A stretch of 64,000 nt of DNA from a virus, in IMG/VR virus record IMGVR_UViG_3300027763_000038, positions 44,771 to 108,770 of that record. The stretch is one strand, 5' to 3'. The position numbers were made by a program, and so were the translations under genes. Of the stretch, positions 6,329 through 34,293 are shown in pieces. Below the pieces are notes generated by a model. It ran no database searches, had not been told where the DNA came from, and worked only from the letters and a program-made list of their open reading frames with translations. The first letter of the stretch is position 1. The number at the start of each line of letters is the position of its first letter.

Positions 6329-6334
6329 TTGATA

Positions 6335-9300: not shown

Positions 9301-11803
9301 AAAATAAAGAAGCTTGCGAGGAACCAACAACTATTGTATCATCTATAAAGTTACCTTCTTCTTCCCAGGCCCCATCAGTAGCTATTTCCCAATCGGTATA
9401 AAATCTACTACTAGTTGAATAAGCAAAACCTCCATAACTAACTGATGTCTCCCCATCACTATTACTAAAAGGAGACGTTTGATACCATCTCATTTTAGGT
9501 GTTTTCACCATAAATTTCTTACCATAGTAAGTATTACAAATATTTGCAAAAAAATCATGTATCTTTTTTAAATCTGCATATAATGATTGAACGTATGGCT
9601 GAGAATTTTCAATACTAATAGTATATGCTCTTGGTTCTTTAGTCTGAGTAACTGTACTTTTATTAACTGCATCCCAATTAATAATATTTAAACCAGCTAA
9701 AAAATCTCTTCTATTACCAAAAGTAGGATATTGAGCACAAAAAGCTGAATATATTAAATCTGCAATGTCTGTATTAAATATGTTGTCAAAACAATAAGAA
9801 AACCAAGCTTCAAATCCACCACCAGCTGATCTAATTTCATTTTCTAAAACTACAAACTCACCACTAGAGCCAAAAGATTTAGTTAATAAAGATGTAATAT
9901 CATTATTTCTAAAAACAATTTGTAACTGACCTGTCTTACGGTCTAAATATACTTTTCTCGGTTCATGCCAGTCAATAGCTGATGGTACTGTGGTTGTGGT
10001 AGTATCTTGACCATGGTAACCAAAATATGGACTAATTAAATCATTGTATAAAGGATAGCTTTCATTATTTGCAAAAGCAGGATTAGGATTACCTCTGTAA
10101 CGAGAAGCTGGATCTTGTTCTTCTGTAGGAAAATAATTTCCTCTATAAATATTCAAAGAGGTTCCAAAAGTATCTATAGTCTGAAATACGTCCCAATCAT
10201 TAATTTGACCAACTGCTGATCCGCCATCTGTAGAGGTTTGAGTATATCTAGTGCTACCAGCATCTGGTATTCTAAAATAATTTTCATAATTAGTACCAGC
10301 ACTAGTGGTGCCACCAAAATCCATAAAATGACCAACACCATTATTATAGTATGGATCAAAAACTAAACTACTCTGTTTAGAAGATATATGTACAGATTTA
10401 ACTTGTAATAATCTTTGCTGTTTACTTCCAATATACATGGATCTAATTTCTTTATCATTATATTCTTGTCCATATGTATAAGAACTCACTTTTGCTCCAG
10501 CACCAACTAAATTAGCTACTATTTTTTTAATAATTTCTCTAGGTGGTTGATTTCTTTTACTTACTGTACGAATGACAATAACTCCAGAAAAATTACCGAC
10601 TTCATTAGGATAATTACTATCTGGAAGTCGAAAATCCACATAAAAGTCAAAACCAGAACCATTGCATATTTTGCTTATAAAATCAAGTATACTAATAGTT
10701 GGACCAGTATTTAAAAATAAGTCATTAGGAGGTATCGGTAATTCACTTAAGTCTAATTTTAATTTTGTTCTTCTAACACTATCTGTTGCTAAAATATTAG
10801 GACATAAACCACATTCTTGCAGAGTCATAGTTTGGTGAGGAGTAGCATTTGTGCTGAATATTTGTTGACTACTAACATCAACAGGAACTCCACTCATAGT
10901 TAATGGATGTTTAGCAATAATTGCTCCATACGGAGAAAATGGGTTACTTATGCCTCCCGCTAAGTCTTGTAACGCATAATAAATTTGTAAAGCTGAAACT
11001 CCACTATCTGTTTTCCCAGCATATCCAAAGCCTTTGTTTTCTAAATATCCAAAAATATTAAATACATTTGGCATATTGCCCTTAACAATATCTGATGTAT
11101 AAACACCAGTAGTATTTGATGGAACAGCTATGTCATCATTAATTTCAGTTGATATTGATCCCATGTAGTCATCAATAATTAACCAAGACCCAGCTAGTAA
11201 ACTAGCATAACTTTTTAGTGTAACTTCAAATAAGCCACTACCGCCTTGACCACCATTAGCTTTCCAATCGGAAATCATTCCTCCAAAAGATATTCCGGGT
11301 GAAAACTTAAAAAAAGCTGGAGCACCAATAATGTCATAAGCATCACGAACCAAGCTACTATCTGGATCATATTTAGGTAGTCCTAAAAATCCTGGATCTG
11401 GATCAGTCCAGTTTTTTTTCACATTATTAGCATTATCCCAGTAAACTTTTCCAAGATCATTATATTGATTTTGATCTGCTATTTGTGGACTTATAGTTTT
11501 GAATAAATTTCTACCAGGATCAGCATCACTAAATGAACCATCTGTGTTTCTTCTTAGCGCTGTGGATCCTCGGTTAGTATTAGAATTAGTATTAGCTACC
11601 AGAGTGTTAAGTGGACCATATTTTGTTGAGGCCGGGTGATATGCAGGGTCTGATACTAAGTTAATTGTTATTGAACTAGCATCGGCACCCCATCCTAGAT
11701 TCATATTAAAACTAGTTAAGCTACATCCTAAAAATAATGTCTGATTATATGGCCCTACTTCTTCATATGATCCAGGACATGTAAACGGATTCTGTGGAGG
11801 CAT
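6335..11803 (-). CDS. Putative tail tip/baseplate hub protein (1822 aa) with a CxxC...CxxC motif
   Basis: Position downstream of TMP and Dit-like gene; beta-rich N-terminus (LGCSLTSFNMNLGWGADASSITINLV; FGGMISDW; ISKICNGSGFDFYVD) resembles hub proteins; CAFC/CPFC pair; AAGGA RBS. Confidence 0.55.
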   Translation of the reverse strand: MPPQNPFTCPGSYEEVGPYNQTLFLGCSLTSFNMNLGWGADASSITINLVSDPAYHPASTKYGPLNTLVANTNSNTNRGSTALRRNTDGSFSDADPGRNLFKTISPQIADQNQYNDLGKVYWDNANNVKKNWTDPDPGFLGLPKYDPDSSLVRDAYDIIGAPAFFKFSPGISFGGMISDWKANGGQGGSGLFEVTLKSYASLLAGSWLIIDDYMGSISTEINDDIAVPSNTTGVYTSDIVKGNMPNVFNIFGYLENKGFGYAGKTDSGVSALQIYYALQDLAGGISNPFSPYGAIIAKHPLTMSGVPVDVSSQQIFSTNATPHQTMTLQECGLCPNILATDSVRRTKLKLDLSELPIPPNDLFLNTGPTISILDFISKICNGSGFDFYVDFRLPDSNYPNEVGNFSGVIVIRTVSKRNQPPREIIKKIVANLVGAGAKVSSYTYGQEYNDKEIRSMYIGSKQQRLLQVKSVHISSKQSSLVFDPYYNNGVGHFMDFGGTTSAGTNYENYFRIPDAGSTRYTQTSTDGGSAVGQINDWDVFQTIDTFGTSLNIYRGNYFPTEEQDPASRYRGNPNPAFANNESYPLYNDLISPYFGYHGQDTTTTTVPSAIDWHEPRKVYLDRKTGQLQIVFRNNDITSLLTKSFGSSGEFVVLENEIRSAGGGFEAWFSYCFDNIFNTDIADLIYSAFCAQYPTFGNRRDFLAGLNIINWDAVNKSTVTQTKEPRAYTISIENSQPYVQSLYADLKKIHDFFANICNTYYGKKFMVKTPKMRWYQTSPFSNSDGETSVSYGGFAYSTSSRFYTDWEIATDGAWEEEGNFIDDTIVVGSSQASLFSDDDNKIQPILGFNANGDFASRDFWSQTYLATRNDPNSLTALMLAMSHSFGSVVDRSEYFYFPLDHSMQPDQYLYVPYQNPTISNLGLENVTNTLVGATLAPTTPHGEPIPSGWQFKMYVKSEVEPKVIFLKDIDDLYRPRAILSLPDPLYLGGGKSDAQDSLSYVQLHDALIIMNRGSAQPPNNRSRTNNSLKATSNPMNWKAILCAWGFSSTMKLIGGNHGISINNSAENVVIAKKATCPEFAAVPVKYNRYTYGPWINHPGLQGVSSLIFIPPDADNPYNQDALNNLVNNLVGGVKVNVQDDLVPWNYGGTNALDAVVMNIIKDDINYQQVTEQGSISAVGLLLKDPNGKSYSIGSVLKLTAEDTAGPIVTNFNVSLNNAGITSSYNMRTYVKKIGFFNKENSDRIRDTNLEFMKRRRDTNNSINSALNKIKSNIFPKSNNGLLGGADTPKPLRWSPFEILAGAAYPQLNFQSSIGDIYADLGFSPSWSKFPYSKNTSYNTKDMLRYLTNVSVQDIQELPRELKDDYSQKSFMSLDGLLSPISFYPTLYGSTYNITKYPRDNCAFCKGSGNYTWEKFDIPRDSGSQPSGFAGLIQLKSSQTDVCPFCETIDNKEKRAYKSSSPKQTNPPYILASGDDLTIISKNANTGQPSGETNQNTIINYSTLNPVLLATGEFSCFQNRQSGDLTGHSIDLVGLGMTVPETGNSLKFAYSSTIEKNFLDYDQNYIDHCAAKSIPGPTGASGCPANNARFFGLRGPLMVHAWGYDLEGFPVPNSSGEPKLDTNGEIVKDTSGNIIYKNQTQKPDQTWTEPYKENSFYKGWGQLPGTWPVGPVDLRWDDVAGVWVAGGNGYKPIWVVIETDLVGNQPSRGEIVDDSYSNQPLASGLRRLVFVKDPLGVNGAPRGAHVYCNYNGQNGFYEPIFNKPSMTSGIIRGANSVDMYNLYRNTSGTYLTTFSNPLDFNVNVGDAGLFTFMGSGWVLQSYRC

Positions 11804-11831
11804 TTGATATCCTTGTATTCTTAAAACTAAA

Positions 11832-13439
11832 TTATTGTTCTATGCATCTTACCCATTCCCAAGTTTTACTAGTACTGATTCGTCCTTCTTTTGGATTCCA
11901 ATTACTAGTATTAGCCGTTACATACGATTTGATACCTGCCGTATTAGCATATCCAATTGTAAAACTGGCAGGATTAAATCTTTCTACTACACCTGTTATA
12001 GTAGTATAGTGGTCACCTGGGAATAAAAGATCTACTAAACTACTAGGTTTAGGAAGCACTACTTCAAAATTAACAGTTCTAGATGATGAACTAAAAGTTC
12101 CCAAATCTTGCAAAATAGGACCTAATTTACGTCCTAATACGAAAATAGAAGCAATCATAGGAGTAGCATGACGATCATCAATACTTAGTGTTTCGCTAAT
12201 AGCTCCACTAACCAAGGGTCTTGGTCTATTGTTAAAAACCCAACTATATGTTATTGTTCCTTCCGCAGGATTCATTCCTTCTGTTATGCTCATAGGAACA
12301 GGGTTTATTGGAGCAAGTCCGCTGCTAACGGAAGTTGAATAACCCAGAGTCATCAAAGTACCAGTAGCAAAAGCGCTACTTATTCTATTAATTAAACCAG
12401 ATTTTATTTCAGCATATCCACTTAATGCGTTAACAAATTTGGTACCATTAGTTCCATTTGCATGAGTATTATCGTTATATAATTGATTTAATGTACCAGT
12501 TAAAGATCCACTAAGATATGGAAGCATACTACTATTGTATATATTTCCACTATTCATTAACTCTAAACCTTTTATTGTACCCTGTACTGTTACAGTTCTT
12601 AATAATTCTGAGTCTAATGAGCTATCAATATTAAAAGTTTCTATATATGGTAATGTTACTCCACTAGGTACTCCTATCCAATTATCTGTTATTCTAAAAG
12701 ATCCTTCAACTTCGCTAACATTTAAACTTCTAACAAAATTATATAGCTTCAATCCAACAACACCACTATATGTTGGAGGTTCTCCAAGTTGATAATTTAC
12801 CCATCCTTTAGCATTTTGCACAGCACTAAATGAAGATCCTCCACCACTATTAGGTATGTACTTGCCTACTGCTCCAAGAGTACGAGTAATTCGATAAAAA
12901 GGATAATGTTGTCCTTGGTTAAAAGAAAGAGCAGGATTTCCATATCCTGGCAAATAATTACCTAAACTAAACGGCCCCTTAGCAAATGCTGTTTCATCTA
13001 AAGTTTCAATACTCCATTCGTCTTGAGTGCTATTAACATAAAATGCTGGACTAATACCTGTAACAACACTATCTTCAAATTGTAAACCAATACTATAGTC
13101 AATAGTAGTTGTCCAATTATTATCTGTTTTATTAGCAGAATATTGGGATACTTTACCTCCAGAAAATATACTAAGAGTTGACCCACAACCAACTGTTAAT
13201 GTACCGCCATCGACAAATACGGATCTCAAACCACTTTCTAATGTTAGCAGTTGTGGCAATCCACTATTACCACTACCCGTAAATAATTGTCCTTCTAAAG
13301 TAACAGAAGTGGTTGCTCCAATAGTTCTTCCCGCTCCATTTCTTTGATATTCTTTAGAAATAGAAACAGACGGAACTGGATATCCACTTGCTCCTTGAAA
13401 ACTAAAAGATCCATATTTAACAAATGCTGACGTAGCCAT
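11832..13439 (-). CDS. Putative distal tail/baseplate structural protein (~535 aa)
   Basis: Track ORF 11832..13466; the ATG at 13439 (MATSAFVKYG) follows AAAGGA and is the likelier start; beta-strand-rich (TSVTLEGQL, RTVTVQGTIKG); position after TMP. Confidence 0.5.
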   Translation of the reverse strand: MATSAFVKYGSFSFQGASGYPVPSVSISKEYQRNGAGRTIGATTSVTLEGQLFTGSGNSGLPQLLTLESGLRSVFVDGGTLTVGCGSTLSIFSGGKVSQYSANKTDNNWTTTIDYSIGLQFEDSVVTGISPAFYVNSTQDEWSIETLDETAFAKGPFSLGNYLPGYGNPALSFNQGQHYPFYRITRTLGAVGKYIPNSGGGSSFSAVQNAKGWVNYQLGEPPTYSGVVGLKLYNFVRSLNVSEVEGSFRITDNWIGVPSGVTLPYIETFNIDSSLDSELLRTVTVQGTIKGLELMNSGNIYNSSMLPYLSGSLTGTLNQLYNDNTHANGTNGTKFVNALSGYAEIKSGLINRISSAFATGTLMTLGYSTSVSSGLAPINPVPMSITEGMNPAEGTITYSWVFNNRPRPLVSGAISETLSIDDRHATPMIASIFVLGRKLGPILQDLGTFSSSSRTVNFEVVLPKPSSLVDLLFPGDHYTTITGVVERFNPASFTIGYANTAGIKSYVTANTSNWNPKEGRISTSKTWEWVRCIEQ

Positions 13440-13474
13440 AATAATAAATGTCCTTTCCCTAAACAAACTTAAAA

Positions 13475-16400
13475 CTAAACTGATCCGTATAGAGGATTAG
13501 CTCCAGGATGATTAAGCTGATTAACTCTAGCAGTAGCTGACCATAGAGCAGTCCATCCACCACCACCACTAGCAACTATACTAAGTCTTGGGATACTACT
13601 AGTATTTCTTATTTCTGTAGATAAGCTCATCACACTTGGCATAGTATCTCCATAGTATCTAACATTTTCATTACCAAATTTATAAAACTCAGTACCAGCC
13701 GCTGATCTATATACGCCACCCTCAATTTCATATGTTCCAGCAAATTTTCTAGGACCCTGTGGACCACCTTGTACACCAGACTGCCACAATACTGAAACAC
13801 TAATTTTATAACCCCAAACTCTATCATATTGAGCAGAGCTTAAACTATAAAAATCATTAAAATTAATACAATTATTTGAAGTTTCATCCGATATAACGCT
13901 ACTTTTTGACCAATTAGTAACTAATGGATTACCAACACCATTTGGTCCTGTTGTGCGAGTTCTTAGATAATACTGAACATATTGAGATGATCCATCATAT
14001 ACTCTGTTAACATCATTATGGTTAAATGAACCACCCGCAAATGAGTGACTATTATATGTGCTGGTTACTGAAGGTTTGTAACCAAAAGCTATACCAGGAC
14101 AACTTTGTGGATTACTTGTTTCTACTTGGGTTTGATATGCTTTAAGGCCGCTAGCAGTAACCCAGGCATAACCATTATACGCAACATATGCACCATCGTC
14201 TTTATCAGTAAATTGACTTCCATTAGAATTTCTTTTGGTAAAACCAAAATTAGTAATAAATGAACCATCTGCTCCTTGTGCAGTAGAGACGACATTGAGG
14301 GGGTAACTATTGCCGATAATATCAGTAGAGTATGCTGTGAACTGATTATTAATATCAAGATTGCTAAAACGAATATTTCCAGAAGCATCAGTTCTTAAAT
14401 AATATCCTGATGGAGCAGTATCATTTCCCACCTTCAATTCTGTTACCCATGCTTTACCATTTACATATAAAGCAGCTTTTGGATTATAGGTAGATAAATT
14501 AGCAGCAGGAGTATTTATAGCTACTGCTCCAGTTGGACTAATATGGAAACCTTTAAGTTCAATTAAGCCAGAATTTAAAACTGAAAACCTGTTACCTAAT
14601 CCACGATTATTAAATACCGTATCTACTTGTGAATTAGAGCTTAAAATTATGTTGTAGTAACTATCATATCCATTTGTTGGAACGGTGTCTTCTGTAACAT
14701 CAACGGATGCGCCCATAGCCATAACTTGCTGTGAATTAATCCAGCGAAGAGAGCTATTTCCAGTAGAATATGCAGCACTATTAGAAAATAGAAGAGTGTT
14801 GGGTCTGGTAACATAAGAAGATAATTTACCATTATTATTAACATACAAGTAAGTTCCAGTTAAACTAACTGGCAATGTTAATCCACTATTTAAACCAATA
14901 TTATGGAAATTACCAGAGTTACCACTAACATTATAAAAGTTAATTTTATGATTAACATAATCGGTATCAAATAATACTCTAGCAAAATCTACCCCACCAC
15001 TACCACGGATTCTTACTTTATATGTTGCTGCTTCATCATTTAAGAATAGTCCAGTACTATTAATATAAACTTCATTATATCCACCTAAATTAAATCCTAA
15101 TTGTTTGATAGTAGGATTATATGCAATCTCAGTAATACCACTAGCTCCCTTATCTGTAACCTTGAATAACATACCTCCATTATCACCAGATAATCTAACT
15201 GGTAGCTGCCATGTTCCAACACCATTAGTGTTAGTTGTTAGTACATAAGCGTCAGGAGCAGAAAAACCTAGTTTGAAATCTGTTGTAGTGAAAAGTCCAC
15301 TAACAGAAAGAGAGGACGTGGGACTATCTGTATTAATACCAACACGATTATTATTAAGATTAGCATTGATAACGCTGGTAGAATCTGAAGCAGACTTAAC
15401 AATAAGGTTTTGTTGTAGTTTACCAGAATTAAAGACAATCTTATAGTTATCAAGAATCATCTTATTGCTATTATTAGTTCCTAAATATATAGTATCATCT
15501 ACAACACCAGTCAAACCATAGCCGATAGCTATATTTCTAACACCAGATACATAATTATTATATCCTAAAATTAAACCACTACTAAAAGGATATTTGTTAT
15601 TGGATCCGACAACAATATTATTAGACCCGTAAACAGGATTCACCTCTGCTCCACCAGCCCCACCCATTCTTTGGTATGGCATAATAAGTCCACTAACAAC
15701 AGTAGACGCAGTATTATTATCATCAAATGCGTTATTCATATAGTAATAACCATTTGTACGATCAAGAATAATTGGAGTATCAAGTGTGATATAGGTTATA
15801 GGCTCTATGGTATCTTCAACAATAGCTGTGATAGTTCTTGTAAAAGTATTACTCACTGATGGAGGATTCTGAAAAGAAACTAATATTTTATCTCCCTGTA
15901 AATACTGGGCTAATAATCCTTTGGTTGGAATATTAATAACAGTACCGCCAACATCCGTCATTGTACAGGTATTTCTTGTGTAACCTAGAGTATTATTACG
16001 ACCATAAACAATATTATTTAAGCCGTCTAATTTATTTGAGGTTCCAACAGCGATACCATTATTAACAACTTGATTATATCCAAGAACAATATTACCACTA
16101 CCAAAAACATCCATTTTTTTATCAGCAGTATTGAAAACAATTGATTCTTGACCAACAAGATTAATTTTGCTACCTACTGTGCCTAATTGACTTCCAACTA
16201 ACGAATTAGAATTACCAACATTATAAGCGCTTGTGCTATTTTTAAGATTGTTATATGATCCTAAAGTATTGCTATTTGAACCTGATATAGCATTTTTATT
16301 ACCAACTACAATATGACTATTACCAGCATATACAACATTATTAATACCAGCAACTATAGAGTTGATAACAGTTCCGGCCGGTCTTTTACCTGATCCTGTT

Positions 16401-17842
16401 ATAGTTCCAACAGAATCAATATAAACCCCTGTCTGATTGTTCAATATACCGAGAACTAAATTATTTGTACTAGCTGATGAAACAGCATTAGTGTTGCCCA
16501 TAACTAAATTATTAGTAACAGATCCACTAATATTATTAGTATTGCCTAATATAACAGATCCAGTAATATTTTCAGTAATATTGGATTGACCAATCAATAA
16601 TATCTGGTCTGGAGTACCACTAGTTAAATTATTATTAATACCAATTAAAATACTTTGTGATAAACCATCTTTTGTATTAATATTACCCATACCTAAAAAT
16701 AATAGCTTATTAGAGTTAGATAGAGACATATCATTACCGATAAAAATACCACTAGTCATAGTATTTAAAGATTGATTTGATCCTATGGAGATTAATTTTG
16801 ATCCTAGAATAGAATCAGAACTACCATAAATATTATTATTGTCTCCAGTAACAGAAACTAATGACCCAACAACATTATTAGAATTACCAATTAAATTATT
16901 CAAGTTTCCTATGTATATGTTATTGTTGCCACTGTTGGTGGCATAGGCTCCAAAAATAATACCTGATGATCCGGTGTTTGAAGATAATTGGGTTAAACCA
17001 ATACTCATATCTCCATTAAAATTATTATTATCTCCCATCAAAATATTGTTTGATCCAGTAAGGGAGTTGGAGTTACCAATAAAAATATTGGATATGCCAG
17101 TAATGGCTACAGTATCACCCATAGCAATATTGTTAGCTCCAACAAATTTAGAATTATTAACCAGAGCAACAATTTTAGAACCATTAATAGTATTAACACT
17201 ACCAATAATTAAACCACTATTAGATAATCCACTATTATATGCTCCGATACTTGTGATACCCACGCCGGTCACAGCATTATTACCACCAACGACAGTGTAT
17301 GCATAACCAGAAACGCTATTGTTACCGCCCAACACTACATTCTTAATATTAGCCCTAAAAACGGGAGTATTGGTACCGCGATTATCAACAGTAAAAAGAA
17401 TTTCGCCACTAGTATAGCCAGTGATAGGATCTAATATCTTAGAGATAATTTGTCCATAGGCAATTTCATTATAACTAGTATCTCTACCAGCCAAATTAAT
17501 AGTAGCTGGTAAACTTCCTGATAGTGGTGTTGTTTGGGGATTATGAACTAATAATAGAGTAACCCCAGTAGGACAATTTGTTACGCTTTCAACAATTAGA
17601 CCATCTTTAGAGCATGGAGCAACAACATGCAGAATAGCATCTGGTACACCCGTACCAATACCTAATCGTCCAGTTGAGGCATCAAAATACATCAAGCCAT
17701 TGCCGGTTCCTTTAATGCTAAAATCAATATCTAGCTTATTAATATTAAAAGAGCTAGCGACACCAGAGGTGTTTGATAGTTTTATATCTGGTGTTGTACC
17801 AGAACCAATATTTAGTATACCGGAAATTGTTGTGTCAGCCAT
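13475..17842 (-). CDS. Tail fibre/spike with long Gly-Asn beta-helix (YadA-head-like) repeats (1455 aa)
   Basis: GRLGIGTGVPDAILHV and RVGINTDSPTSSLSVSG fibre motifs; long run of (I/V)G.NN repeats; start overlaps the TMP stop. Confidence 0.75.
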   Translation of the reverse strand: MADTTISGILNIGSGTTPDIKLSNTSGVASSFNINKLDIDFSIKGTGNGLMYFDASTGRLGIGTGVPDAILHVVAPCSKDGLIVESVTNCPTGVTLLLVHNPQTTPLSGSLPATINLAGRDTSYNEIAYGQIISKILDPITGYTSGEILFTVDNRGTNTPVFRANIKNVVLGGNNSVSGYAYTVVGGNNAVTGVGITSIGAYNSGLSNSGLIIGSVNTINGSKIVALVNNSKFVGANNIAMGDTVAITGISNIFIGNSNSLTGSNNILMGDNNNFNGDMSIGLTQLSSNTGSSGIIFGAYATNSGNNNIYIGNLNNLIGNSNNVVGSLVSVTGDNNNIYGSSDSILGSKLISIGSNQSLNTMTSGIFIGNDMSLSNSNKLLFLGMGNINTKDGLSQSILIGINNNLTSGTPDQILLIGQSNITENITGSVILGNTNNISGSVTNNLVMGNTNAVSSASTNNLVLGILNNQTGVYIDSVGTITGSGKRPAGTVINSIVAGINNVVYAGNSHIVVGNKNAISGSNSNTLGSYNNLKNSTSAYNVGNSNSLVGSQLGTVGSKINLVGQESIVFNTADKKMDVFGSGNIVLGYNQVVNNGIAVGTSNKLDGLNNIVYGRNNTLGYTRNTCTMTDVGGTVINIPTKGLLAQYLQGDKILVSFQNPPSVSNTFTRTITAIVEDTIEPITYITLDTPIILDRTNGYYYMNNAFDDNNTASTVVSGLIMPYQRMGGAGGAEVNPVYGSNNIVVGSNNKYPFSSGLILGYNNYVSGVRNIAIGYGLTGVVDDTIYLGTNNSNKMILDNYKIVFNSGKLQQNLIVKSASDSTSVINANLNNNRVGINTDSPTSSLSVSGLFTTTDFKLGFSAPDAYVLTTNTNGVGTWQLPVRLSGDNGGMLFKVTDKGASGITEIAYNPTIKQLGFNLGGYNEVYINSTGLFLNDEAATYKVRIRGSGGVDFARVLFDTDYVNHKINFYNVSGNSGNFHNIGLNSGLTLPVSLTGTYLYVNNNGKLSSYVTRPNTLLFSNSAAYSTGNSSLRWINSQQVMAMGASVDVTEDTVPTNGYDSYYNIILSSNSQVDTVFNNRGLGNRFSVLNSGLIELKGFHISPTGAVAINTPAANLSTYNPKAALYVNGKAWVTELKVGNDTAPSGYYLRTDASGNIRFSNLDINNQFTAYSTDIIGNSYPLNVVSTAQGADGSFITNFGFTKRNSNGSQFTDKDDGAYVAYNGYAWVTASGLKAYQTQVETSNPQSCPGIAFGYKPSVTSTYNSHSFAGGSFNHNDVNRVYDGSSQYVQYYLRTRTTGPNGVGNPLVTNWSKSSVISDETSNNCINFNDFYSLSSAQYDRVWGYKISVSVLWQSGVQGGPQGPRKFAGTYEIEGGVYRSAAGTEFYKFGNENVRYYGDTMPSVMSLSTEIRNTSSIPRLSIVASGGGGWTALWSATARVNQLNHPGANPLYGSV

Positions 17843-20800
17843 TATTTTCTCCCTAAAGCGCCTTCTGTTTGATCACTAAGAGTACCCATAGCTCTACCAA
17901 CTTCTGCAACAACCATGTTACTGATTGCTGTTTCACTGAGCTGCTTTAACACTTCTGCTCCATTAAATACTACTTCAACTTTATGATTACCCATAACATT
18001 AATAACTGGTGGTAAGTTTATTGCTTTTAATTGGCCAATAAATTCTGCAAATTTTGTCGTAAACTGGCTTAATCCATCCATATTGGGTGAGGATGAGCCT
18101 CCACTATTAGATACACCACCACCAGCACCAGATTCATCAGTCATTCCACCATTAGCTAAATACTTAACGCTACCACCACGACTATATCGATTATTGTTTA
18201 TAGCTTGTAATAAGGGAAGATTTTGCTGGGCTGATGCTCGGTTAACAACAAACTCGCCCGGTGTTAACATAGCAGGAACAGTATCGCTTCCCCTTGGAAT
18301 ATAAGGAATCATCATTCCATGGTTAGCATAAATCATTCCACCGTATTGTTTATGAGTTGGTTCGGTGGTTGGAGGTGGGGGTGTTTGTTCTGGTTTTTTC
18401 TCTCCTGCAACTGAATTACCAGAAGCTTGTGATGCTTGTCCAGACATTATTTCGGGATGTTTCTTAAATAATATTCGCCATCCAGCATCAATAGCATCGC
18501 CTTCTATTTTTGCTCTTGCTTGACCATTAAGTATATCTAAAATACTCTTACCATTAACTCCTATTTTGCTAGCTTTTGGATCACGCTTTAAAATTGTATA
18601 AGCCTGTAAAGAATTATTGTAAATTGTTGTTAAATACTTATGTCTTTGTGTGTCTATGTCATATTGTTTTTTAGCATTAGTTTTAATTTCATCAGCTGAT
18701 AGTTTACCCCATACTGACCAATATTTGTCTGCTAATCCTTCAGCAGTTAATGACTCATTTATTGCATCTGCTTTTAAAGCATCAAACATTTGTGGACTAG
18801 TTTCAGCTTCATTTTTAATTTGTAAGATTAATGAGCCAGTTTGAGTTTTAGCGAGTGATCTCTCCATAATTATTTTTTGTTTTTCTTCTTCTGTTGGCGG
18901 CTGTGATCCTTTTGGGACACTACTAGATGCACCTGCCATATCGGCCCAACCGCCGCCTTTAGCATATATGACTCCTCCCTGAGAATAAGCTTCAGTTTTA
19001 CCATTATTAATGGCTTTTAATAGAGGTAGATTTTTTTGTGTGGCAGCTCTGTTTACTACAAATTCTCCGGGTGTCAACATTGCTGGAACAGTATCTGTTC
19101 CTTTTGGTTCATAAGGAATCAACTTGCCTGTCTGTGCATAAATTACTCCGCCAGAAGCTTTATATTCTGGTTTAAGACTCAAAGGCCCGAGCACTTTACC
19201 ATTGCTATATTTAAAATCCTGCGGTAAAATACCAGGAACAATTGTTGCATTTCTTTGATAAATCTCTTTTGCTCCTACTTCATTATAATATGTCTCTCTA
19301 AATTTATTAGGAAAGTCTATTCCACCAAGCTCTTCTGGAGATACTGCAACTAAATCATTAATATTGGTAAAAGGATTGTTTTTTAATTTAAATCCTATAT
19401 CTTGACCAAGCTGTTCTAATGCATCTATTAGATCTTGATGTCCAGATTGTTGTAAGTCATCAACAGATGCTTTACCTCTAATAAAATCAGCTTCAGCTTT
19501 AGCTTCAGGATTTTTTGATATCAACTCTAACAGAGTAATATTCAAAGCTTTAGCTGTATTTTTAAGTTTTTCTTCTGTTCTTTTGATATATTGTGATTTT
19601 ACAGATATTAATTCTTCTCTGAATTTTTTAGCAGCCTCTATTGCTGCTTTTTGTTTGGGTAAATTATCTACTATTTCTTTTAGATAATTTTTTCTATCTT
19701 CTACATTTTGTTTATTATTATATTCTTTGTTATTTTCTTTGTTTTGTTCTGTTCTCTCTTTTGATTCTTTTCTTATTTGTGCATCAGATTTTTCTACAAC
19801 AGTTATAAGTTTTCCATCTTTGCCTCTTATGGTACTTGCTACTTCTCCATTTTCTTTTCTTTGTTGTCCCTGTTCTGTTAAAGATCTTCCTTTTGGATCT
19901 TGCGGATCTGGATCATTTAAGCCTTTAAATTCACTACCACTTATTGCTAATAGTCTTTCAAATGCTGCTGTTGGTCCACCATCTTTCAGATATACTACTC
20001 CACCAGAGGAATAACCCTTACTATCACTACCACCTCCACTATTAATTGACTTTAATAAATCAAGATTATTTCGTGTAGCCTTAGCATTAACAACGAATTC
20101 GCCAGGAGTTAGCATAGCAGGAATAGTATCTGTGCCGCGAGGTTGGAAATTAATTAATTTGCCTGTACTAGCATAAACTGGTCCACCATTGTCAAATCCA
20201 TATGCTTTCATTATCTTTTTAAGTAATTCTTTTGCTAAACTATTCTTTGAAAACTCACTAGTTTTCATAGATTGTATAATATTTGTAAATACTTCTCTAT
20301 TATCATCTACTAACTGTTGACCACTATAAGGAGAATTAGTAACCTCTTTTAAAGGAGCCCATCCTTTTGGATCTAGAGCAAAATTTTGAATATCTGGTTT
20401 CAAACTATCTAATACGTCTGTCTTCATAAACATATTATTTTTATCTTGTAAAGCATGTCCCAATTCATGTTTTAATAGTTCTGGATCTTGATTTTTACTA
20501 GAAATTTTCTTTGTTGTTGCATCATATTGTGCATCATATTTAGGAGATTGACTATTGGGTTCAAATGATTTTACTCCAAATTGTGCGTCAGCATATTCTT
20601 TTAATTTTTTCTTACCTTCTTCACTACTAGTATATGGATATAATTGTTGAGCTAGATCAGAACTTAATCCTTTAATTAAACCTCCTGTAGAAGCATATAT
20701 AACTCCACCCTTTTCTCTATATTGTGGAGGTAATGGTGGTGGTCCTTTTGGTGGTAACGGAGGTGGTCCTCCTGCTTGTCTTGGAAGTGGAGGTGGACCA

Positions 20801-32800: not shown

Positions 32801-34293
32801 GCACCTTTAACAGCGGCGAATAGTGTTATGATTGGTAAAAGTTCTTTAGCAGCATCGGCAACTTTAATGAAAGCATTAGCTAAACTCAACCCTACTGTTA
32901 CCATCTTCTGAAAACTATCAGTATTTCCAACACTACGAATGAGTGTTAAAAATTCTTCTCTAGTTTTGGATATTTGGACAGCTAGTGCTAACTGACCTTT
33001 AGCAGCGTCTGTGGCTAAAGAGCCTTGTCCAGCTTGTGCGATCTTTAATGCATCTTGTGCTGTGGTAAATTCTTGAATCAATGGAATAACTTTACCAATT
33101 TGTCTAAAACCACCAAGTTCTTCTACTATATTAGAAAATTTAAGATCTCTGGGATCTATTTTACCTAAGCCTTCACTTAATAATTGAACAGCTTTATATG
33201 CTCCTACAAATTTACCATCTAGATCTGTTAGATTAACACCATATTCTTTCAAGGCTTCAATAGTGTCACCTCTTTGAATTCTGGTAAAGATTGTTCTTAA
33301 GCCAGTGGCAATAGTTTCAGCACTTTCTCTGGTTGTTGCTCTAACGCTGGTGAAGACCGCAATGAATTCATTAAGAGCATCTTTGCCTTCACTTACTCCT
33401 TTGCTAGCTGCGGCAAACACACCACCGGTACGCTGAATAGCAGCAATAATATCACTAGATTCCACAGCAAATCTTGCTGATACAGCATTAATGGAACCTA
33501 ATGCTTTTTCTAGATCATTAGCTCCAATTTTAAACTGTCTCATTAAAGCAATAGAACCTTCTACTGTTTGATTCATATTATCAAAAGACGGGGTCAAAGC
33601 ACTCAAAGCCAAAGCATTTAATGCTATTTCGGTTTCTTTAGCGCTTAAACCAGCTTGAGATAATGTTACTGCAACAGTAGCTAAATCTTTAGCTGCGACA
33701 CCCAACTGACCAGATAATGAAGCTATAGTTACCTGTAATTTACCTAAATTTTCTTTACTTTCACCAGTAACTTGAGAAATACGAGTTATTTGTTTATCAA
33801 AACTAATAAATTCTGAAATACCGCTCTTGATAGCCCCAACTAATCCATAGATTAATACGGTAGAGCTACTAAATGCAGCAAAACGTCTAACAGCCAAACC
33901 AGCTTGATTACCAAATTCTTCTATCTCGGTTCTAGAGCCAGCGATAGCTCTTTGTGATGCTCTAGCAGAAGCTTGTACTCCTTGCAAAGCAGCAGATATT
34001 TGCCCAGCATGATTAGGCATACTTACAGCAGCAACACCCCTCATTGCATTCATCATATCTCTCATAGCGTTAGCAACATTTGTTGCCGAAGAAGCTGTTG
34101 TTGTGAGAGTAGAATTAAGATTATTTAAAGAAGAGTTTAAACCGGCAATTACTTGAACAGTAGCTGGGTTTATCTTAAGATTAACATTAGCAGAGATCGT
34201 ACCTAATTGTTTTTTAATGTTAGATACAATAACATTAACATTAGATGGTCCCTGTAAATTAATTTGTGCTGTTAAATTAAATCCTTTAGACAT
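17842..34293 (-). CDS. Giant tape measure protein (5483 aa) with repeated GG...TPGEFV modules and embedded enzymatic domains
   Basis: N-terminal TP901-type TMP core (ITRISQVTGES...LSQAGLSAKE...ESAETIATGLRTIFTRI); long Ala/Gln-rich helical regions and hydrophobic segments; position after tail tube and chaperone-like genes; GAGG RBS. Confidence 0.92.
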   Translation of the reverse strand: MSKGFNLTAQINLQGPSNVNVIVSNIKKQLGTISANVNLKINPATVQVIAGLNSSLNNLNSTLTTTASSATNVANAMRDMMNAMRGVAAVSMPNHAGQISAALQGVQASARASQRAIAGSRTEIEEFGNQAGLAVRRFAAFSSSTVLIYGLVGAIKSGISEFISFDKQITRISQVTGESKENLGKLQVTIASLSGQLGVAAKDLATVAVTLSQAGLSAKETEIALNALALSALTPSFDNMNQTVEGSIALMRQFKIGANDLEKALGSINAVSARFAVESSDIIAAIQRTGGVFAAASKGVSEGKDALNEFIAVFTSVRATTRESAETIATGLRTIFTRIQRGDTIEALKEYGVNLTDLDGKFVGAYKAVQLLSEGLGKIDPRDLKFSNIVEELGGFRQIGKVIPLIQEFTTAQDALKIAQAGQGSLATDAAKGQLALAVQISKTREEFLTLIRSVGNTDSFQKMVTVGLSLANAFIKVADAAKELLPIITLFAAVKGASAITQFASGFGRGFTGGGRRNNAPGFATGGLVPGQGDSDSIAARLTPGEFVIRKSAVKAIGAHNLHRLNKANGGRIQKFSNGGLTQSYTIDQLLTRDGSSTIQKAIGKTNIEAVGDSAKIRIVPRSIDLKPADFKKIWDMASEKASTSKRYKSYAGVDVSGENRAKLDDIIQSSKNQKNRKRAVSEKETEVGKLGSAENRWGKAYETLIISKLKQGWESASNKTNYPVDLIQKAENQAIQKIGEAKFKTSDTEDIDLVSKMLRYRIDKNQVGFAGSKNGLFKENNKKDKDPNVFLGNLDYFWEANQKDKFYSWIQTQQKNKVPGFNSGGSVRKFVDAGIVTPTSGKAATSTDIFRVLTLDEVIKDTGSNAGDIQRILKKRNSLTPSEQVIKDKILAKYTEKTSGIKKANNLDIQKATTDGLLFGAAGFKGRAFPTTDRMEIPGLKNPVKVRITSGVLDKEAAGKDIKRMTQAMNAVSAKSTKNMQIRQILKEVGPIYSDFDRTLAFGADKILADPKQPRFSEFSDKDKVRDALKNATLSKLGLALVAQVRKTPQLLDNLHVISARPKNTMGLIGEWLASKNLPIRNLEGVGGPDNTAEKIAQLKVEYMQANPGAFIDDDKRNIDAARAAGMNVYHYANKKVKASDRKKMGEANAHGYIAESIIHQLGGPIANKAATNYGIDFPDGLKDASKYFKLPPNIPTDAKLTLNGPAELKGQIGNYLKARGYADGGLVPGVGSQDTVPANLNVGDFVIRKKAVQTIGANKLSSLNRKAAGGSINTTVPALLTPGEFVINKKTASRIGTPTLNRLNHADKVSGFNSGGLVGGVQEFATGGAVQRLFFGGRAGPAARPNTVNTETIGVSGNTAQRLSELAEVLSELGVASSRSGQLLRRGYQATAAEAERAYNADILMARAAGASATVLYDLQRALQQSQQEARNEVRIRQQLGNVNGRQIQEALSMVDEELERLTVTARAAATAAGTLTDEEVEAEVRAGAGARRTQAFENVNASGVLTGVGGGVDLAGIGATGDDLERTMMALMRDADTLDQMNQEYIRQRRHAMAEEARLDGNLARAARIRAGLERDVEQVISAEVRARRQAVEEAARSAGSRDTGTRDRNNGNRGLLMAGGIITVGSLISQQMDTKASAGQASAAAGLNTASQSAGVAIGVISQLQDFEQHLRDAGTEVGDMGANAVRAGRRLLMVGSFIFTAVSVIKDMTNAMNEFKLEVESKKLEFAMKGVEQEFEVLRKDVKNLDFTRLNNKLEAASTAFANQINILSTRTLYTFTNLFDALATFTGNGVGGEEGLRQRSDILRLGGSQAYYRASNSAEDTNVEFNKIIPQLAQEQAAMGRALGDSLLESFKERAKRGESVKDITSDPNFDKFSESLANADAVIRQKILEVENSGLGNAQINSIKESIIKNAGEEKARQQVNIVLREKEAQALQRSTYAFTGSLNRMFKNMEQAISATSNALDSMQKSIDANIASLTGSAALQNINSQTSNIISNPRAYSRASVSQAQSTGAGFFGQSSGLVKSLLKVGETAENTIMKTINDTVQQNPEANDEIIGSKITTNVNKALKDLGLPPEFVDKLSGQIGKAIADLRKSGDDKISFGDLQEKVAGLSSTLDTAKGVSDIVVKALDHFNSALNTYSSNINKIIDLEISSREKLRKAEDILINSGVELSKVFGESINLEKSRARTQARVGRFTGGVTDPDKIFNQILKLNTEKNIAESSRAQAGERGAAGAEDFAKFSKDVQNNSIALRESYNALRFLADNTENASEAMQKIQDVQQRNAGKVSFIEKLATATPDEAASLGNALNRLQKNINGQINTINSSTGAQKAYFEALQSGASGFEAMRAAQTAFANERKETLGALQDIMPFLGEGRQASNVRANVLESMLKESGMGISPMMMDVLNNLRNPQADPAVAAAMTYYNEAIALQSSANEHLANIDQHLAQDTTEANAKALATALSDVTLTFFNQQLVDIAANINNLVPVKPQARAAGGIIYAEAGQMVNFQPKGSDTVPAMLTPGEFVVNKKATANNRSLLESINSHKYSSGGSVRYYDRGGFVHDAGDPSDFTKSSSISQIKLLNLNTPNVINDLLKAQNKLYNTPSVYTFLDSRKQTPEPTKDNYDLKDLEPTAGVVVPGFGPIIGRKNNKEVDYQRDPAEEALLNRFSAIKSDDTFFHINSLDKGSFGTTNIKELNFEEYKRKAAENNIKWELPKFDLPNNYGPVPNITDFKLNIPDAFSSNIISNPYGIIVPDEAGGMPTLDVATNRMYQIYEATNGGVKENAISIDPPFFQAPVGAAPGSSLAGLDFKPKGSIVGRNLVMNNLTKNIISHDKIADLKIKNDEAYAEYEKTRDFLNAPTFKEDTVIDEDAKHALEIQAQLSKVYNGNSIGEIIKGKTLIEKYFPTIKGVENAGSLMILQDSATEAINKLIMEYAANPIAAKDKNIVFSGKNLKKPAIGDFVKDVPINIFSVDKAGAMDLPAKPFPYIVNASLEDLDADLRKKIEKELTAKNPGGISMKRLPPETLSIPVNDLLNSFNIQKQFKDTLSLNGQNLDFKVSYDEWEGKLFKPDTNEFNPHISKYLLPAKNDKTFFESLDISKRRITTNGVNRFTGQELLQSIADGSNVGNVTTNLTDYIKLIVNGGKDNGERQKLLDSLSSKFKGSFIKSQDMTFPDVDTLITPFDRDSITTFNVGKHILEALDAAKIQAAEGSDQIEGKALGNQGVGDADLPKAVRATAKGALSIFGRAKVPGLSNSWLSRYIGKIPNMVNLKPSGAKNMAAYASGVMEQFGAYLSNIGTKSNNPNQYQGLKELWTLASGASQAFSGLANGNSSLFGQFVASDLKLIDLFRSLGAGTLMRRITGLALNDDWKNLLANTAKGKSRKVGINSLGKQKELSEDNLPTTLQELIDLVFNPYTEFDDSDTRFVLMDKLVNDLSNFKEGIGIPYFDRNTMAFISKNVQSLEKWYHGDGDKWLGQDYLFDKKLKPEARIPAFFDSASDNSFTDIYQEANDAQVTLGLGSKFGRLPSPNWFRARVAQGLQTGGMVYAANGGQMIQFQPRGTDTVPAMLTPGEFVINRKATQENLPLLKAINQGGNPKALSKGGVIYAQDGTQVPSLSVNGGVSIPTVISGNEFKTVDYNTNIKLQQKAKQEAQSKMLQQYQKDMELFEQSLQEDINNLVTSKSSPEMDKDTRFLASKKIISYYETIKKRNKEILFVSGRDGLLGTGDDIVPEQEMSLDDLSLKYSMLGLTPGVGIPFDVAAAVVDVMRGDLTGAGLSLASTVEGVGQVAGAAKIAAGVKAATAAKAATAAMAGVGLFATLKKFKPLKSDAVLDAIKTQTAKNMPAGLNTDELKALSELQTKIKNGGLDLSSAADITKQFDIAKNTTGATSAFAKMIDSIKTLAIQGDLGDAAKVVDDISGAKGGIFSTITKNIAGRLKSGALLLGGGVAGATLFSGGIHKYNTAAEARHKLDPETVKAATADATVVNGIPAGDPGRARAPVPAGGPAPAAKPQTPQEKIDAIIREFQFPKIRLGKQTQADLNKVKDPIKRLNMYENKAKLLRADPNLEYRSMGGLIYAQDGMLVPGSRLMDPRLVQQNQNYMPEMTPTQGELDFANQQAKLQTQQAKITTDNSGRQWHTPEGEISAYGPPPGPGLMGESLYQRAGAAWGMFTAVAGAARSKGGARGKGQKSAARTLPPKPKSATNTAVQQKVAELTKRKAQVQSEVTTINQKIKEATDRRKALLGDNKEKDLLEGIHDGRETFGSKLSFRDTKYTLTRDKVNTDLLLKDFARATGKQVTQSTVQSDEFLAYIKSAILEPLAKTPEELIARQSRGLIVNGIKQDGKLTLEDIQKFAKDPEGISRLDQQIRGGNSDAHMIMGPGGTINTGRNFGNTKEVDMLYRALENGNLDHVQGVTPALRKSLEQTLLFQQIRVEEAQIKAFKTQVRSLESQISNIEAGINQGNQLLNPPEQAPAVAVPPKPLPPPPPPLRNGPPPLPRQAGGPPPLPPKGPPPLPPQYREKGGVIYASTGGLIKGLSSDLAQQLYPYTSSEEGKKKLKEYADAQFGVKSFEPNSQSPKYDAQYDATTKKISSKNQDPELLKHELGHALQDKNNMFMKTDVLDSLKPDIQNFALDPKGWAPLKEVTNSPYSGQQLVDDNREVFTNIIQSMKTSEFSKNSLAKELLKKIMKAYGFDNGGPVYASTGKLINFQPRGTDTIPAMLTPGEFVVNAKATRNNLDLLKSINSGGGSDSKGYSSGGVVYLKDGGPTAAFERLLAISGSEFKGLNDPDPQDPKGRSLTEQGQQRKENGEVASTIRGKDGKLITVVEKSDAQIRKESKERTEQNKENNKEYNNKQNVEDRKNYLKEIVDNLPKQKAAIEAAKKFREELISVKSQYIKRTEEKLKNTAKALNITLLELISKNPEAKAEADFIRGKASVDDLQQSGHQDLIDALEQLGQDIGFKLKNNPFTNINDLVAVSPEELGGIDFPNKFRETYYNEVGAKEIYQRNATIVPGILPQDFKYSNGKVLGPLSLKPEYKASGGVIYAQTGKLIPYEPKGTDTVPAMLTPGEFVVNRAATQKNLPLLKAINNGKTEAYSQGGVIYAKGGGWADMAGASSSVPKGSQPPTEEEKQKIIMERSLAKTQTGSLILQIKNEAETSPQMFDALKADAINESLTAEGLADKYWSVWGKLSADEIKTNAKKQYDIDTQRHKYLTTIYNNSLQAYTILKRDPKASKIGVNGKSILDILNGQARAKIEGDAIDAGWRILFKKHPEIMSGQASQASGNSVAGEKKPEQTPPPPTTEPTHKQYGGMIYANHGMMIPYIPRGSDTVPAMLTPGEFVVNRASAQQNLPLLQAINNNRYSRGGSVKYLANGGMTDESGAGGGVSNSGGSSSPNMDGLSQFTTKFAEFIGQLKAINLPPVINVMGNHKVEVVFNGAEVLKQLSETAISNMVVAEVGRAMGTLSDQTEGALGRK
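18150..32730 (-). repeat. Eight dispersed protein-level repeats (GG...[GS]DTVPAMLTPGEFV[VI]N..A...N..LL..IN) within the TMP
   Basis: Copies at approx. 32580-32730, 30480-30630 (degenerate, NLNVGDFV), 30330-30480, 26600-26810, 23450-23670, 19975-20200, 18950-19165, 18150-18350. Confidence 0.93.

Follow-up and report, generated by a model that had tools for sequence, protein, structure and literature searches.

The long open reading frame at 17842..34293 on the minus strand of the window (the whole stretch of 64,000 nucleotides analysed here) encodes a tape measure protein (TMP) of the TP901-1 / PhageMin_Tail type (PF10145), in which eight copies of a module shared with lambda gpH are interspersed with mutually unrelated blocks. 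Our preferred reading, held with modest confidence, is that of a modular, cargo-bearing TMP whose modules act as functional joints. That most of the modules are actually cut appears unlikely.

A giant tape measure protein with a conserved core

The frame (P0001) is uninterrupted over 5,483 aa and comes from an IMG/VR phage record of 108.8 kb whose completeness is estimated at 73%. Pfam places PF10145 (PhageMin_Tail) at aa 190-382 (E 6e-21, 75.6 bits vs a cut-off of 33.2), and the PHROG tape-measure families 4211, 28, 167 and 1533 also match, in agreement with the initial annotation, which had described a 5483-aa ORF with a normal TMP N-terminus. Outside PF10145 the protein reaches no Pfam or NCBIfam cut-off, and a PDB sequence search with aa 1-5000 gave no match. 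Two relatives labelled 'glutaredoxin 2' (P0065) and 'MlaD' (P0090) by JGI likewise gave only PF10145 in Pfam. Recoding, considered for the two small ORFs upstream of the TMP, which lie in frame across a TAA stop, was rejected; the site, which has a Shine-Dalgarno-like sequence, is a normal gene junction. Neither PHROG nor Pfam assigned a family to the ORFs flanking the TMP gene, so the tail-module context is documented only in part; fibre-like genes (Mtd_N, collagen, laminin-G) are found at 40-63 kb of the window. Species genomes scanned with the N-terminal TMP core for a hint of the host contained no relative. The phage is large, uncultured and of the siphovirus type, and its TMP belongs to a large, uncultivated family with members of 3,000-7,900 aa.

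The protein begins with an N-terminal TMP core (aa 1-523; 32725..34293, minus strand as for all features below) that carries PF10145, ends in a hydrophobic Gly-rich stretch and is kept in about 100 of 104 giant relatives. It is followed by module 1 (aa 524-584; 32542..32724), a lambda-like copy of class I (GFATGG...ARLTPGEFVIRK...NLHRLN). Together, the PF10145 domain, the hydrophobic stretch and module 1 form a conserved core of ~600 aa that resembles lambda gpH without its tip-binding tail. Beyond this core the protein is a chain of cassettes, each ending in an [FY]xxGG half-motif or a full gpH-type module of ~75 aa, and then a conserved tail of ~100 aa.

The first cassettes are block A (aa 585-821; 31831..32541), with a PD-(D/E)xK-like signature (signature 1: E704, D727, E742-x-K744), and block B (aa 822-1224; 30622..31830), which contains a HAD domain and a second such signature (signature 2: E1158, D1179, D1200-x-K1202). 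Modules 2 and 3, both class I, stand in tandem at aa 1225-1334 (30292..30621), with HMM matches at aa 1225-1273 and 1278-1334. The long body that comes next (aa 1335-2496, ~1,160 aa; 26806..30291) is conserved, with aa 1960-2496 kept in about 88 of 104 relatives, and has the composition of an ordinary ruler (Pro 0.5-2.2%, a single hydrophobic segment at aa 1697-1715). All the remaining modules are of class II. Module 4 (aa 2497-2567; 26593..26805) precedes block C (aa 2568-3545; 23659..26592; Pro 5.2%, aromatic residues 8.9%), which is found in about 20-40 of 104 relatives and for which the ESM Atlas yielded nothing usable. Module 5 (aa 3546-3619; 23437..23658) precedes block D (aa 3620-4074; 22072..23436), with Gly/Ala-rich hydrophobic segments from aa 3752-3770 onward. 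Then come two cassettes that start with half-motifs: cassette E (aa 4075-4528; 20710..22071; GGLIYAQDG at its start and a poly-Pro tract at its end) and cassette F (aa 4529-4700; 20194..20709), where GGVIYASTGG leads into a helical block with HELGH at aa 4609-4613 and a conserved Glu at aa 4667. Module 6 (aa 4701-4775; 19969..20193), module 7 (aa 5045-5118; 18940..19161) and module 8 (aa 5315-5386; 18136..18351) enclose the charged block G (aa 4776-5044; 19162..19968) and block H (aa 5119-5314; 18352..18939), both of which differ among relatives. By analogy with lambda, T5 and Douge (PMC12617516, PMC10038345, PMC13033339), the conserved C-terminal tail (aa 5387-5483; 17845..18135) probably binds the tail tip.

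The initial annotation had reported eight GG modules and several further short motifs, at the borders between unrelated blocks. All of these are present: the module HMM returns eight copies, and the short motifs are located at ~aa 594-599 (KFSNGG), ~aa 822-827 and ~1314-1319 (GFNSGG), ~aa 534-538 and ~1326-1330 (FATGG), from aa 4076 (RSMGGLIYAQDG) and from aa 4526 (REKGGVIYASTGG). BLAST of the inter-module blocks against each other found no similarity at E<=0.01, and a plain self-BLAST gave only the identity match.

The gpH-type module and exchange at the joints

The full module spans ~75 aa with the pattern GGhhYA...DTVPAMLTPGEFVVN...[FY]xxGG, and short [FY]xxGG half-motifs occur besides. Its eight copies are spread over aa 524-5386 (HMM E 9e-12 to 2e-35). 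At E<=1e-3 the HMM matches 17,247 protein clusters, as well as 180 cultured phage records, in which the annotated TMP gene was hit in 39 of the 40 matches listed. TMPs of 600-7,900 aa hold 2-11 copies. All 105 giant TMPs have 2-9 modules; the first copy starts the series at ~aa 524, and ~150 aa separate the last one from the C-terminus. This distribution marks the module as an ancient, TMP-specific element.

An alternative is that recent duplication or recombination left the repeats behind as neutral scars, or that the ORF is an assembly artefact; unequal recombination can create repeats, and metagenomic contigs can be chimeric. We think that this can hardly be right. The copies are 61-79% identical as protein, but their synonymous sites are saturated: between copies, identical residues use the same codon at a frequency of 0.476, vs 0.49 expected under independent codon choice. 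This saturation implies that each copy is kept by purifying selection, and the reading as neutral scars of recent duplication was rejected on these grounds. The architecture moreover recurs in over 230 independent proteins, which come from many samples, and two relatives (P0002 and P0003) match P0001 at ~80% identity over aa 1-4090.

These two relatives both lack cassettes E and F. The difference between P0001 and P0002 thus amounts to two cassettes, both of which bring a GGhIYA half-motif of their own. More widely, 57% of homology breakpoints are no more than 40 aa away from a full module (n=594; 20% expected), and the boundaries of indels between close relatives fall within 15 aa of an [FY]xxGG in 63% (n=76; 7% expected). 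Cassettes are therefore gained and lost among relatives at the GG joints; the initial annotation had proposed aligning related TMPs to see whether cargo is swapped exactly at the motifs. Segment content is not identical across relatives, which differ in the cassettes that they carry. Such exchange suggests that the set of proteins which a tail brings into the host can change.

Module copy number tracks TMP length (r 0.65 over 236 proteins; about one per 700-1,000 aa), as it would in a plain, very long ruler. Under that explanation, which is possible though on the unlikely side, the modules would be docking or oligomerisation nodes (a tube/hub hook or a chaperone-binding site), placed once per ~700-1,000 aa for solubility and register; nothing would be cut, and the blocks would mainly add length or act tethered. 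In agreement with it, modules also flank the long conserved stretch of aa 1335-2496, which looks like a ruler. A fixed register is, however, unlikely, since the tandem modules 2 and 3 are only ~5 aa apart and the spacings between modules range from 7 to 1,700 aa.

As a monomer, the module core was modelled with pLDDT ~40-56 except for one helix. The module is thus not predicted to fold alone, and the models suggest flexible, Gly-flanked joints; such low confidence is equally compatible with docking and with cleavage.

Enzyme-like blocks between the modules

Motifs and predicted structure both indicate that one insert is a genuine HAD phosphatase fold, capless and of the phage Pnkp 3'-phosphatase type. 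It covers aa 989-1139 (30877..31329), with DFDRT at aa 997-1001, I-S-ARP with S1061, K1102 and DDD at aa 1115-1117. DFDRT, S1061, K1102 and DDD are invariant in 10 sequences, down to 39% identity. The model (pLDDT 86-94) had only HAD enzymes as its top Foldseek matches in the PDB, among them 2ah5 (E 8e-5) and the T4 Pnkp phosphatase (5uj0_A, TM-score 0.66 on the target), and its top viral matches in BFVD are Pnkp phosphatase domains. The cut-offs of curated families were missed (TIGR01509, 16.1 bits vs 29.4; no Pfam HAD match); with fold and motifs present, the insert is a member of the HAD superfamily and not of a curated family. The initial annotation had read a HAD motif here and proposed modelling with Foldseek as the check; the four catalytic motifs and the predicted enzyme fold were both recovered. 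The block is carried by 86 of 236 TMPs, and DxDxT is kept in 78 of the 86. This implies that catalysis, and not length, is under selection, which weighs against a plain ruler. Such a fold extends the known TMP enzymes past wall-degrading motifs and the RNA polymerase of P23-45.

The HExxH...E motif and both PD-(D/E)xK signatures appear to be conserved as motifs only. H4609, E4610, H4613 and E4667 are invariant in seven giant TMPs (26-39% identity) and three IMG/VR loci, so the motif and its downstream Glu noted earlier stand; a zincin fold was not recovered. The model of the block has pLDDT 57-82 with a best Foldseek E of 0.8, VIA aligned it to generic helix bundles (best Z 5.0, rmsd 3.8 over 106 aligned residues), and Foldseek, VIA, a PDB profile search and Pfam gave no zincin match. 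The alignment used for the fold model of block F excludes its best homologue, L018, which MAFFT had misaligned alongside module-only rows; a repeat scan of IMG/VR with the F-block profile found no additional loci. The block always directly precedes a joint and is present in few relatives only, so it is not the general protease. For the two PD-(D/E)xK-like regions, the E/D/(D/E)xK residues are invariant in both, but fold or profile support for the nuclease-like reading is absent (pLDDT <50 in both; nothing below E 0.1 in PDB profile searches; no Pfam match).

Block D had been read as pre-toxin-like. It has no Pfam or NCBIfam match at E<=0.1 over aa 3620-4074, and its Gly/Ala-rich hydrophobic segments are typical of TMPs; the reading is unsupported. 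Part of the larger claim, of a string of cargo proteins that would be injected, is supported in that at least one block has an enzyme fold. On the other side, ~1,160 aa are ruler-like by composition, and searches turned up no free-standing homologues for the HAD and HExxH blocks: for block B (224-718 aa) we found a single partial fragment on a 1.3-kb contig, and for block F (86-342 aa) none.

Proposed function of the joints and comparison with known systems

In TMPs of this type, tail length is expected to follow protein length, at ~1.5 Å per residue. The whole TMP would lie extended in the tail lumen and set a tail of a predicted length of roughly 0.8 micrometre; if the whole length acts as a ruler, relatives of up to 7,872 aa would exceed the tail record of ~0.8-1 micrometre (P23-45, P74-26). 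At infection the TMP would be expelled before the DNA, its helical and hydrophobic segments would form a conduit through the envelope, and the enzyme cassettes would refold and act inside the host. The modules would serve as functional joints. Their most likely role is anchoring or docking within the tube or hub, the role suggested for JBD30; in addition they may flag sites of maturation cutting, like the one beside the single module of lambda.

The initial annotation had described a FATGG...GEFV motif in lambda gpH, with processing to gpH*, and had proposed that this element is multiplied here. The description is correct (HMM i-E 2.7e-5; BLASTP with module 1, 48% identity over 31 aa, E 5e-6; PMC12617516), and eight copies here compare with one in gpH. 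Like our TMP, gpH has a hydrophobic Gly-rich stretch before its module (FATGG...GEFVFTKEATSRIGVGNLYRL..YATGG, aa ~725-800); it differs in that its 853 aa contain only this one module, and it has neither an inserted enzyme nor any known enzymatic activity. The TMP described here has half-motifs in addition to its eight modules, and cassettes fill the ~4,700 aa from module 1 to the C-terminal tail. Lambda gpH is cut in a Gly-rich zone at ~aa 690-710 (an approximate position) into gpH* and gpHC, whose C-terminal tail binds the tip; the region around this maturation cut is without known function (PMC12617516). Ancient, selected copy by copy and present in up to 11 copies in long TMPs, the module offers a comparative handle on the function of the lambda element.

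Cutting in gpH occurs just upstream of the module start (FATGG, ~aa 726), and the module falls in the cleaved-off gpHC, where no ordered structure was resolved (PMC12617516), which weighs against a plain ruler. The position of the cut agrees with a true polyprotein, in which a phage or host protease would cut at or near every module or [FY]xxGG joint, in tail maturation or after ejection, and yield about nine proteins, the phosphatase and the HExxH block among them. T5 pb2 offers a partial parallel: it is cut after R1127 into pb2* and pb2C, which parts a fragment with a metallopeptidase motif from the channel-forming part (PMC10038345), and the cut follows a hydrophobic stretch, two residues ahead of GGMMY (R|AEGGMMY). 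There is, however, one cut and one enzyme in pb2, no HExxH and no significant module HMM match; the resemblance, being without statistical support, is a lead only. Cutting at every joint would also agree with the Gly-flanked, predicted flexible joints, with cassettes that carry a half-motif of their own and with the constant position of the HExxH block before a joint. Against it, the lambda site is mapped only approximately, the HExxH block is too rare among relatives for a general protease, and the ~40-aa core of the module is conserved more strongly than a cleavage site requires. The phage record (~73% complete) was searched for JAB and NlpC/P60 peptidases; none was found, and no protease candidate emerged. 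We consider a true polyprotein unlikely. The fullest form of the idea would make the gpH-type module a reusable maturation or release signal and the tail lumen a delivery system for cassettes: cleavage at the joints would split the TMP into about nine proteins ejected before the DNA, with a Pnkp-like 3'-phosphatase and possibly zincin and nuclease-like domains as cargo swapped at [FY]xxGG, for example against host defences in the first seconds. We regard this as improbable.

Thermus phage P23-45 provides the one characterised giant TMP, gp96, a protein of 5,002 aa that carries a fused virion RNA polymerase delivered to the host, and a tail of ~800 nm (PMC10770324). Both are giant TMPs that bring, or in our case would bring, an enzyme acting in the cytoplasm into the host; in gp96 the cargo is N-terminal, one cargo is known and our module HMMs gave no significant match. 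As gp96 is full-sized in virions (PMC10770324), delivery of cargo does not need cutting, an observation that a plain ruler also accommodates.

Polyvalent proteins of phages and conjugative elements are likewise giant, virion-delivered and multi-enzyme, with processing by a zincin-like peptidase proposed (Iyer et al. 2017, PMC5512222). They are not tape measures, and the word 'tape' is absent from that paper; of their domains (MPTase-PolyVal, ART, ParB-like and others) none was detected in our TMP by Pfam at E<=0.1.

Other cultured phages carry one or two modules. The single module of Pseudomonas phage JBD30 gp46 (aa 1015-1071) coincides with an AF2-multimer 'hook' (aa 1022-1066) proposed as the baseplate anchor of the TMP (PMC11445458), and this too would suit a plain ruler, as would the TMP of mycobacteriophage Douge, described as a single 1,699-residue trimer (PMC13033339). 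Douge gp16 has two modules, at aa 967-1029 and 1412-1460; Slarp and Schmidt have one each, at 65-70% of TMP length. In the 3,312-aa TMP of Nodularia phage vB_NspS-kac65v162 two modules lie at aa 897-948 and 986-1020. Enzyme motifs inside TMPs were already known, for example the peptidoglycan-hydrolase motif of TM4 (PMC1796659). The TMPs of the mycobacteriophages and JBD30 differ from the one described here in having 1-2 modules in 1,100-1,700 aa and embedded motifs that are wall-degrading and not Pnkp-like, and cassette exchange has not been described in them. With two module copies each, the cultured phages Douge and Nodularia phage kac65v162 are tractable systems in which to address what the module does.

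The tape measure gene and its repeated module

The window forms the final 64 kb of a single-contig viral record of 108,770 bp that IMG/VR classes as linear and ~73% complete. ORF 17842-34293(-), an open reading frame of 5,483 aa, was confirmed as a tape measure protein (TMP; P0001), and the observation that it is segmented by modules stands. PF10145 (PhageMin_Tail) matches aa 190-382 (E 6e-21, far over the gathering score) and the first ~500-950 aa from the N-terminus are also covered by several PHROG profiles for tape measures. Among cultured phages the closest TMPs are of the SPbeta type, with 27% identity in the N-terminal core only, and the second half of the protein had no match in 50,697 phage records.

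The genes flanking the TMP lack a family assignment. Immediately downstream (window 2-17842(-)) are four large ORFs of 1,455, 544, 1,822 and >2,109 aa, the last size being a lower bound because this ORF leaves the window edge. PHROG searches with the three complete ORFs gave no match, and a Pfam scan of the same three detected only a weak antifreeze beta-roll match, in the 1,455-aa ORF; all four presumably encode unusually large components of the distal tail, the hub and the fibres. Between 40 and 63 kb of the window, the TMP strand carries genes resembling fibre genes, whose products have Mtd_N, collagen and laminin-G domains, and Mtd_N (major tropism determinant N-terminus) opens two of the proteins (40125-41057(-), E 2e-11, and 60902-62824(-), E 1e-10). 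Upstream of the TMP, on the same strand and within the structural region, is a second giant ORF (44966-57331(-); 4,121 aa, 12.4 kb coding), in which no Pfam family was detected at E<=0.01. A GT2 glycosyltransferase and an alginate lyase (PF05426, E 9e-51) are encoded on the opposite strand of the tail/fibre gene region (58486-60308(+)).

The initial annotation proposed that a junction motif of the lambda gpH type had been multiplied in P0001, and regex and HMM scans indeed detected eight copies, of which module 1 matches lambda gpH (48% identity over 31 aa, E 5e-6). Three lambda-like copies (modules 1, 2 and 3; aa 524-584, 1225-1273 and 1278-1334) follow GFATGG...LTPGEFVIRK...NLHRLN. The five class II copies (modules 4 to 8; aa 2497-2567, 3546-3619, 4701-4775, 5045-5118 and 5315-5386) follow GGhhYA..G.h.F.PkG(S/T)DTVPAMLTPGEFVVN..AT..NL.LL..IN...[FY]S.GGhV. 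Across 957 cores from 236 proteins, the upstream flank is x(K/F/R)(A/S/N)xGGh(V/I)YA and the downstream flank (Y/F)(S/N/A)xGGhV; isolated half-motifs are found in P0001 at aa ~594-599, 822-827, 4076-4087 and 4526-4538. The class II copies are 61-79% identical in protein sequence and use the same codon at 47.6% of identical residues, against 49% expected under independent draw. Since same-codon use is close to the independent expectation, these copies are old and unhomogenised, each under purifying selection; the codon test rules out a reading of the copies as neutral scars. The blocks between modules had been described as unrelated, and no similarity among them was detectable.

Sequence comparison shows that the module has long been part of tape measure proteins. 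Several PHROG profiles for TMPs align with it in their C-terminal tenth, and tblastn with one copy identified 180 cultured-phage records, at a single place each, with annotated TMP genes underlying 39 of the 40 matches listed. The module lies at aa 893-939 of 1,391 in the Slarp TMP, at aa 738-782 of 1,101 in the Schmidt TMP and, as a single copy ('FATGG...GEFVFTKEATSRIGVGNLYRLMRGYATGG'), at aa ~725-800 of lambda gpH. The Douge TMP (PDB 8zdo, 1,699 aa) has two copies. The 3,312-aa TMP of the cultured cyanophage Nodularia phage vB_NspS-kac65v162 (L007) has two neighbouring modules (aa 897-948 and 986-1020) that lie just 28-31% along the protein, distant from its C-terminus. A scan of the P23-45 TMP detected no module. 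Against 1.84 billion representatives, the module profile had 17,247 matching proteins at E<=1e-3, of which 860 passed E<=1e-30. In the best 150 of the 17,247, protein length runs from 600 to 7,900 aa and each protein contains 2-11 matched stretches.

Cassette exchange at the joints

A word-indexed search recovered 104 relatives of P0001 (3,000-7,700 aa, on contigs of up to 240 kb). All of them carry modules (2-9); the initial one sits at ~aa 524, and ~150 aa separate the final one from the C-terminus. Module count correlates with TMP length (r 0.65, ~1 per 700-1,000 aa; 236 proteins). The longest members, P0107 and P0108 (7,794 and 7,872 aa), have 9-11 module matches; if every residue counts as ruler, their tails would reach ~1.2 micrometres, beyond the P74-26 record.

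By coverage among relatives, the conserved islands of P0001 are aa 1-590, aa 1960-2570 and the modules, together with the C-terminal ~100 aa, and aa 600-1200, 2600-3500, 3640-4680, 4800-5000 and 5130-5300 are variable. The relatives P0002 and P0003 share ~80% identity with P0001 in aa 1-4090 and 62% in aa 4677-5483, and lack aa ~4090-4677. Where P0001 carries blocks E and F, P0002 has one intact module; the P0001 counterpart reads GGLIYAQDG-[block E]-GGVIYASTGG-[block F]-GGPVYASTG and then the core of the module, so that its surplus amounts to two cassettes that each bring a half-motif.

An all-against-all comparison yielded 38 distinct indels of >=120 aa (76 boundaries) between relatives with flanks >=55% identical. 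With BLAST alignment ends that are approximate and drawn to conserved joints, 57% of the 594 points at which homology between P0001 and a relative breaks off lie <=40 aa from a full module (20% expected), and 63% and 78% of the 76 indel boundaries lie <=15 and <=30 aa from [FY]xxGG (7% and 13% expected), in keeping with the swapping of cargo at the motifs that had been envisaged. At L018:3001-3480 (IMG/VR contig 3300032242_002454), the half-motif GGVVYAQDG stands alone after the HExxH block and the module core is missing. Because this block ends without a module core, a half-motif can by itself close a cassette.

A predicted enzyme fold and conserved signatures in the blocks

The HAD enzyme suspected in block B is well supported. 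Its motifs DFDRT (aa 997-1001), I-S-ARP, LK and DDD-x-RN are invariant in 10 sequences down to 39% identity, and the AlphaFold2 model of the block is confident for aa 989-1139 only (pLDDT 86-94). The top Foldseek matches of this model are HAD enzymes only, including AphA, Pnkp1 and the T4 Pnkp 3'-phosphatase (5uj0_A, TM-score 0.66 on target), and the best matches in a viral structure library are phage polynucleotide kinase/phosphatase domains. The block is present in 86 of 236 TMPs, with DxDxT kept in 78 and the DD motif in 73; comparison with curated families stayed below cut-offs, and no close free-standing homologue was found.

For the HExxH block F, the motif was upheld. Seven giant TMPs (26-39% identity) and, in addition, three IMG/VR loci all keep H4609, E4610, H4613 and E4667, and a GFxxGG joint always directly terminates the block. 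The model is helical (pLDDT 57-82), but no zincin was recovered by Foldseek, VIA or PDB profile search. Both PD-(D/E)xK-like signatures are invariant (E704/D727/E742-x-K744 and E1158/D1179/D1200-x-K1202), with no profile match and model regions of low confidence. Block D, annotated as pre-toxin-like, had no family match and reads, by its sequence, as Gly/Ala-rich hydrophobic segments common in TMPs. The low-proline stretch aa 1335-2496, whose C-terminal portion (aa 1960-2496) is conserved, looks like ordinary ruler by composition; block C comprises 978 aa.

Possible roles of the joints

Modelled as a monomer from a 47-sequence alignment, the module core reached pLDDT ~40-56 except for one helix over NAKATRNNLDLLKSIN, and is predicted not to be a self-folding globular domain. 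The FATGG motif and C-terminal processing of lambda gpH had been described correctly: gpH is cut at about aa 690-710, in a Gly-rich region, into gpH* and gpHC, just upstream of the module position, and gpHC residues ~690-817 are unresolved (PMC12617516). Given these positions, the lambda module falls in the unresolved part of gpHC. In T5, a mapped cut after R1127 parts a metallopeptidase-motif fragment from the remainder (PMC10038345); it lies two residues ahead of 'AEGGMMY', whose likeness to the module is without statistical support. We consider it improbable that most modules of P0001 are cut; obligatory cutting is opposed by the 5,002-aa P23-45 TMP, which carries an active RNA polymerase and stays full-sized in virions (PMC10770324). 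In JBD30, an AF2-multimer-predicted 'hook' (aa 1022-1066) would anchor the TMP inside the baseplate, and cleavage at R1066 is speculation only (PMC11445458). The one module that we found in JBD30 gp46 (aa 1015-1071) covers the same residues as this hook. The modules could accordingly be periodic anchoring nodes that are not cut, a reading we consider less likely than not.

We slightly favour a modular, cargo-bearing TMP with functional joints, a reading that overlaps with cutting at most modules. The structural half of the initial interpretation holds: a gpH-type junction module is present in multiple copies, cassettes are exchanged at the joints, and one or more blocks have a genuine enzyme fold. 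Its mechanistic half, under which the TMP would be cut into separate injected effectors, is a hypothesis. Both enzymes carried within TMPs and the maturation cleavage of TMPs have precedents, to which P0001 adds a cassette architecture with many modules and a phosphatase of predicted Pnkp-like fold.
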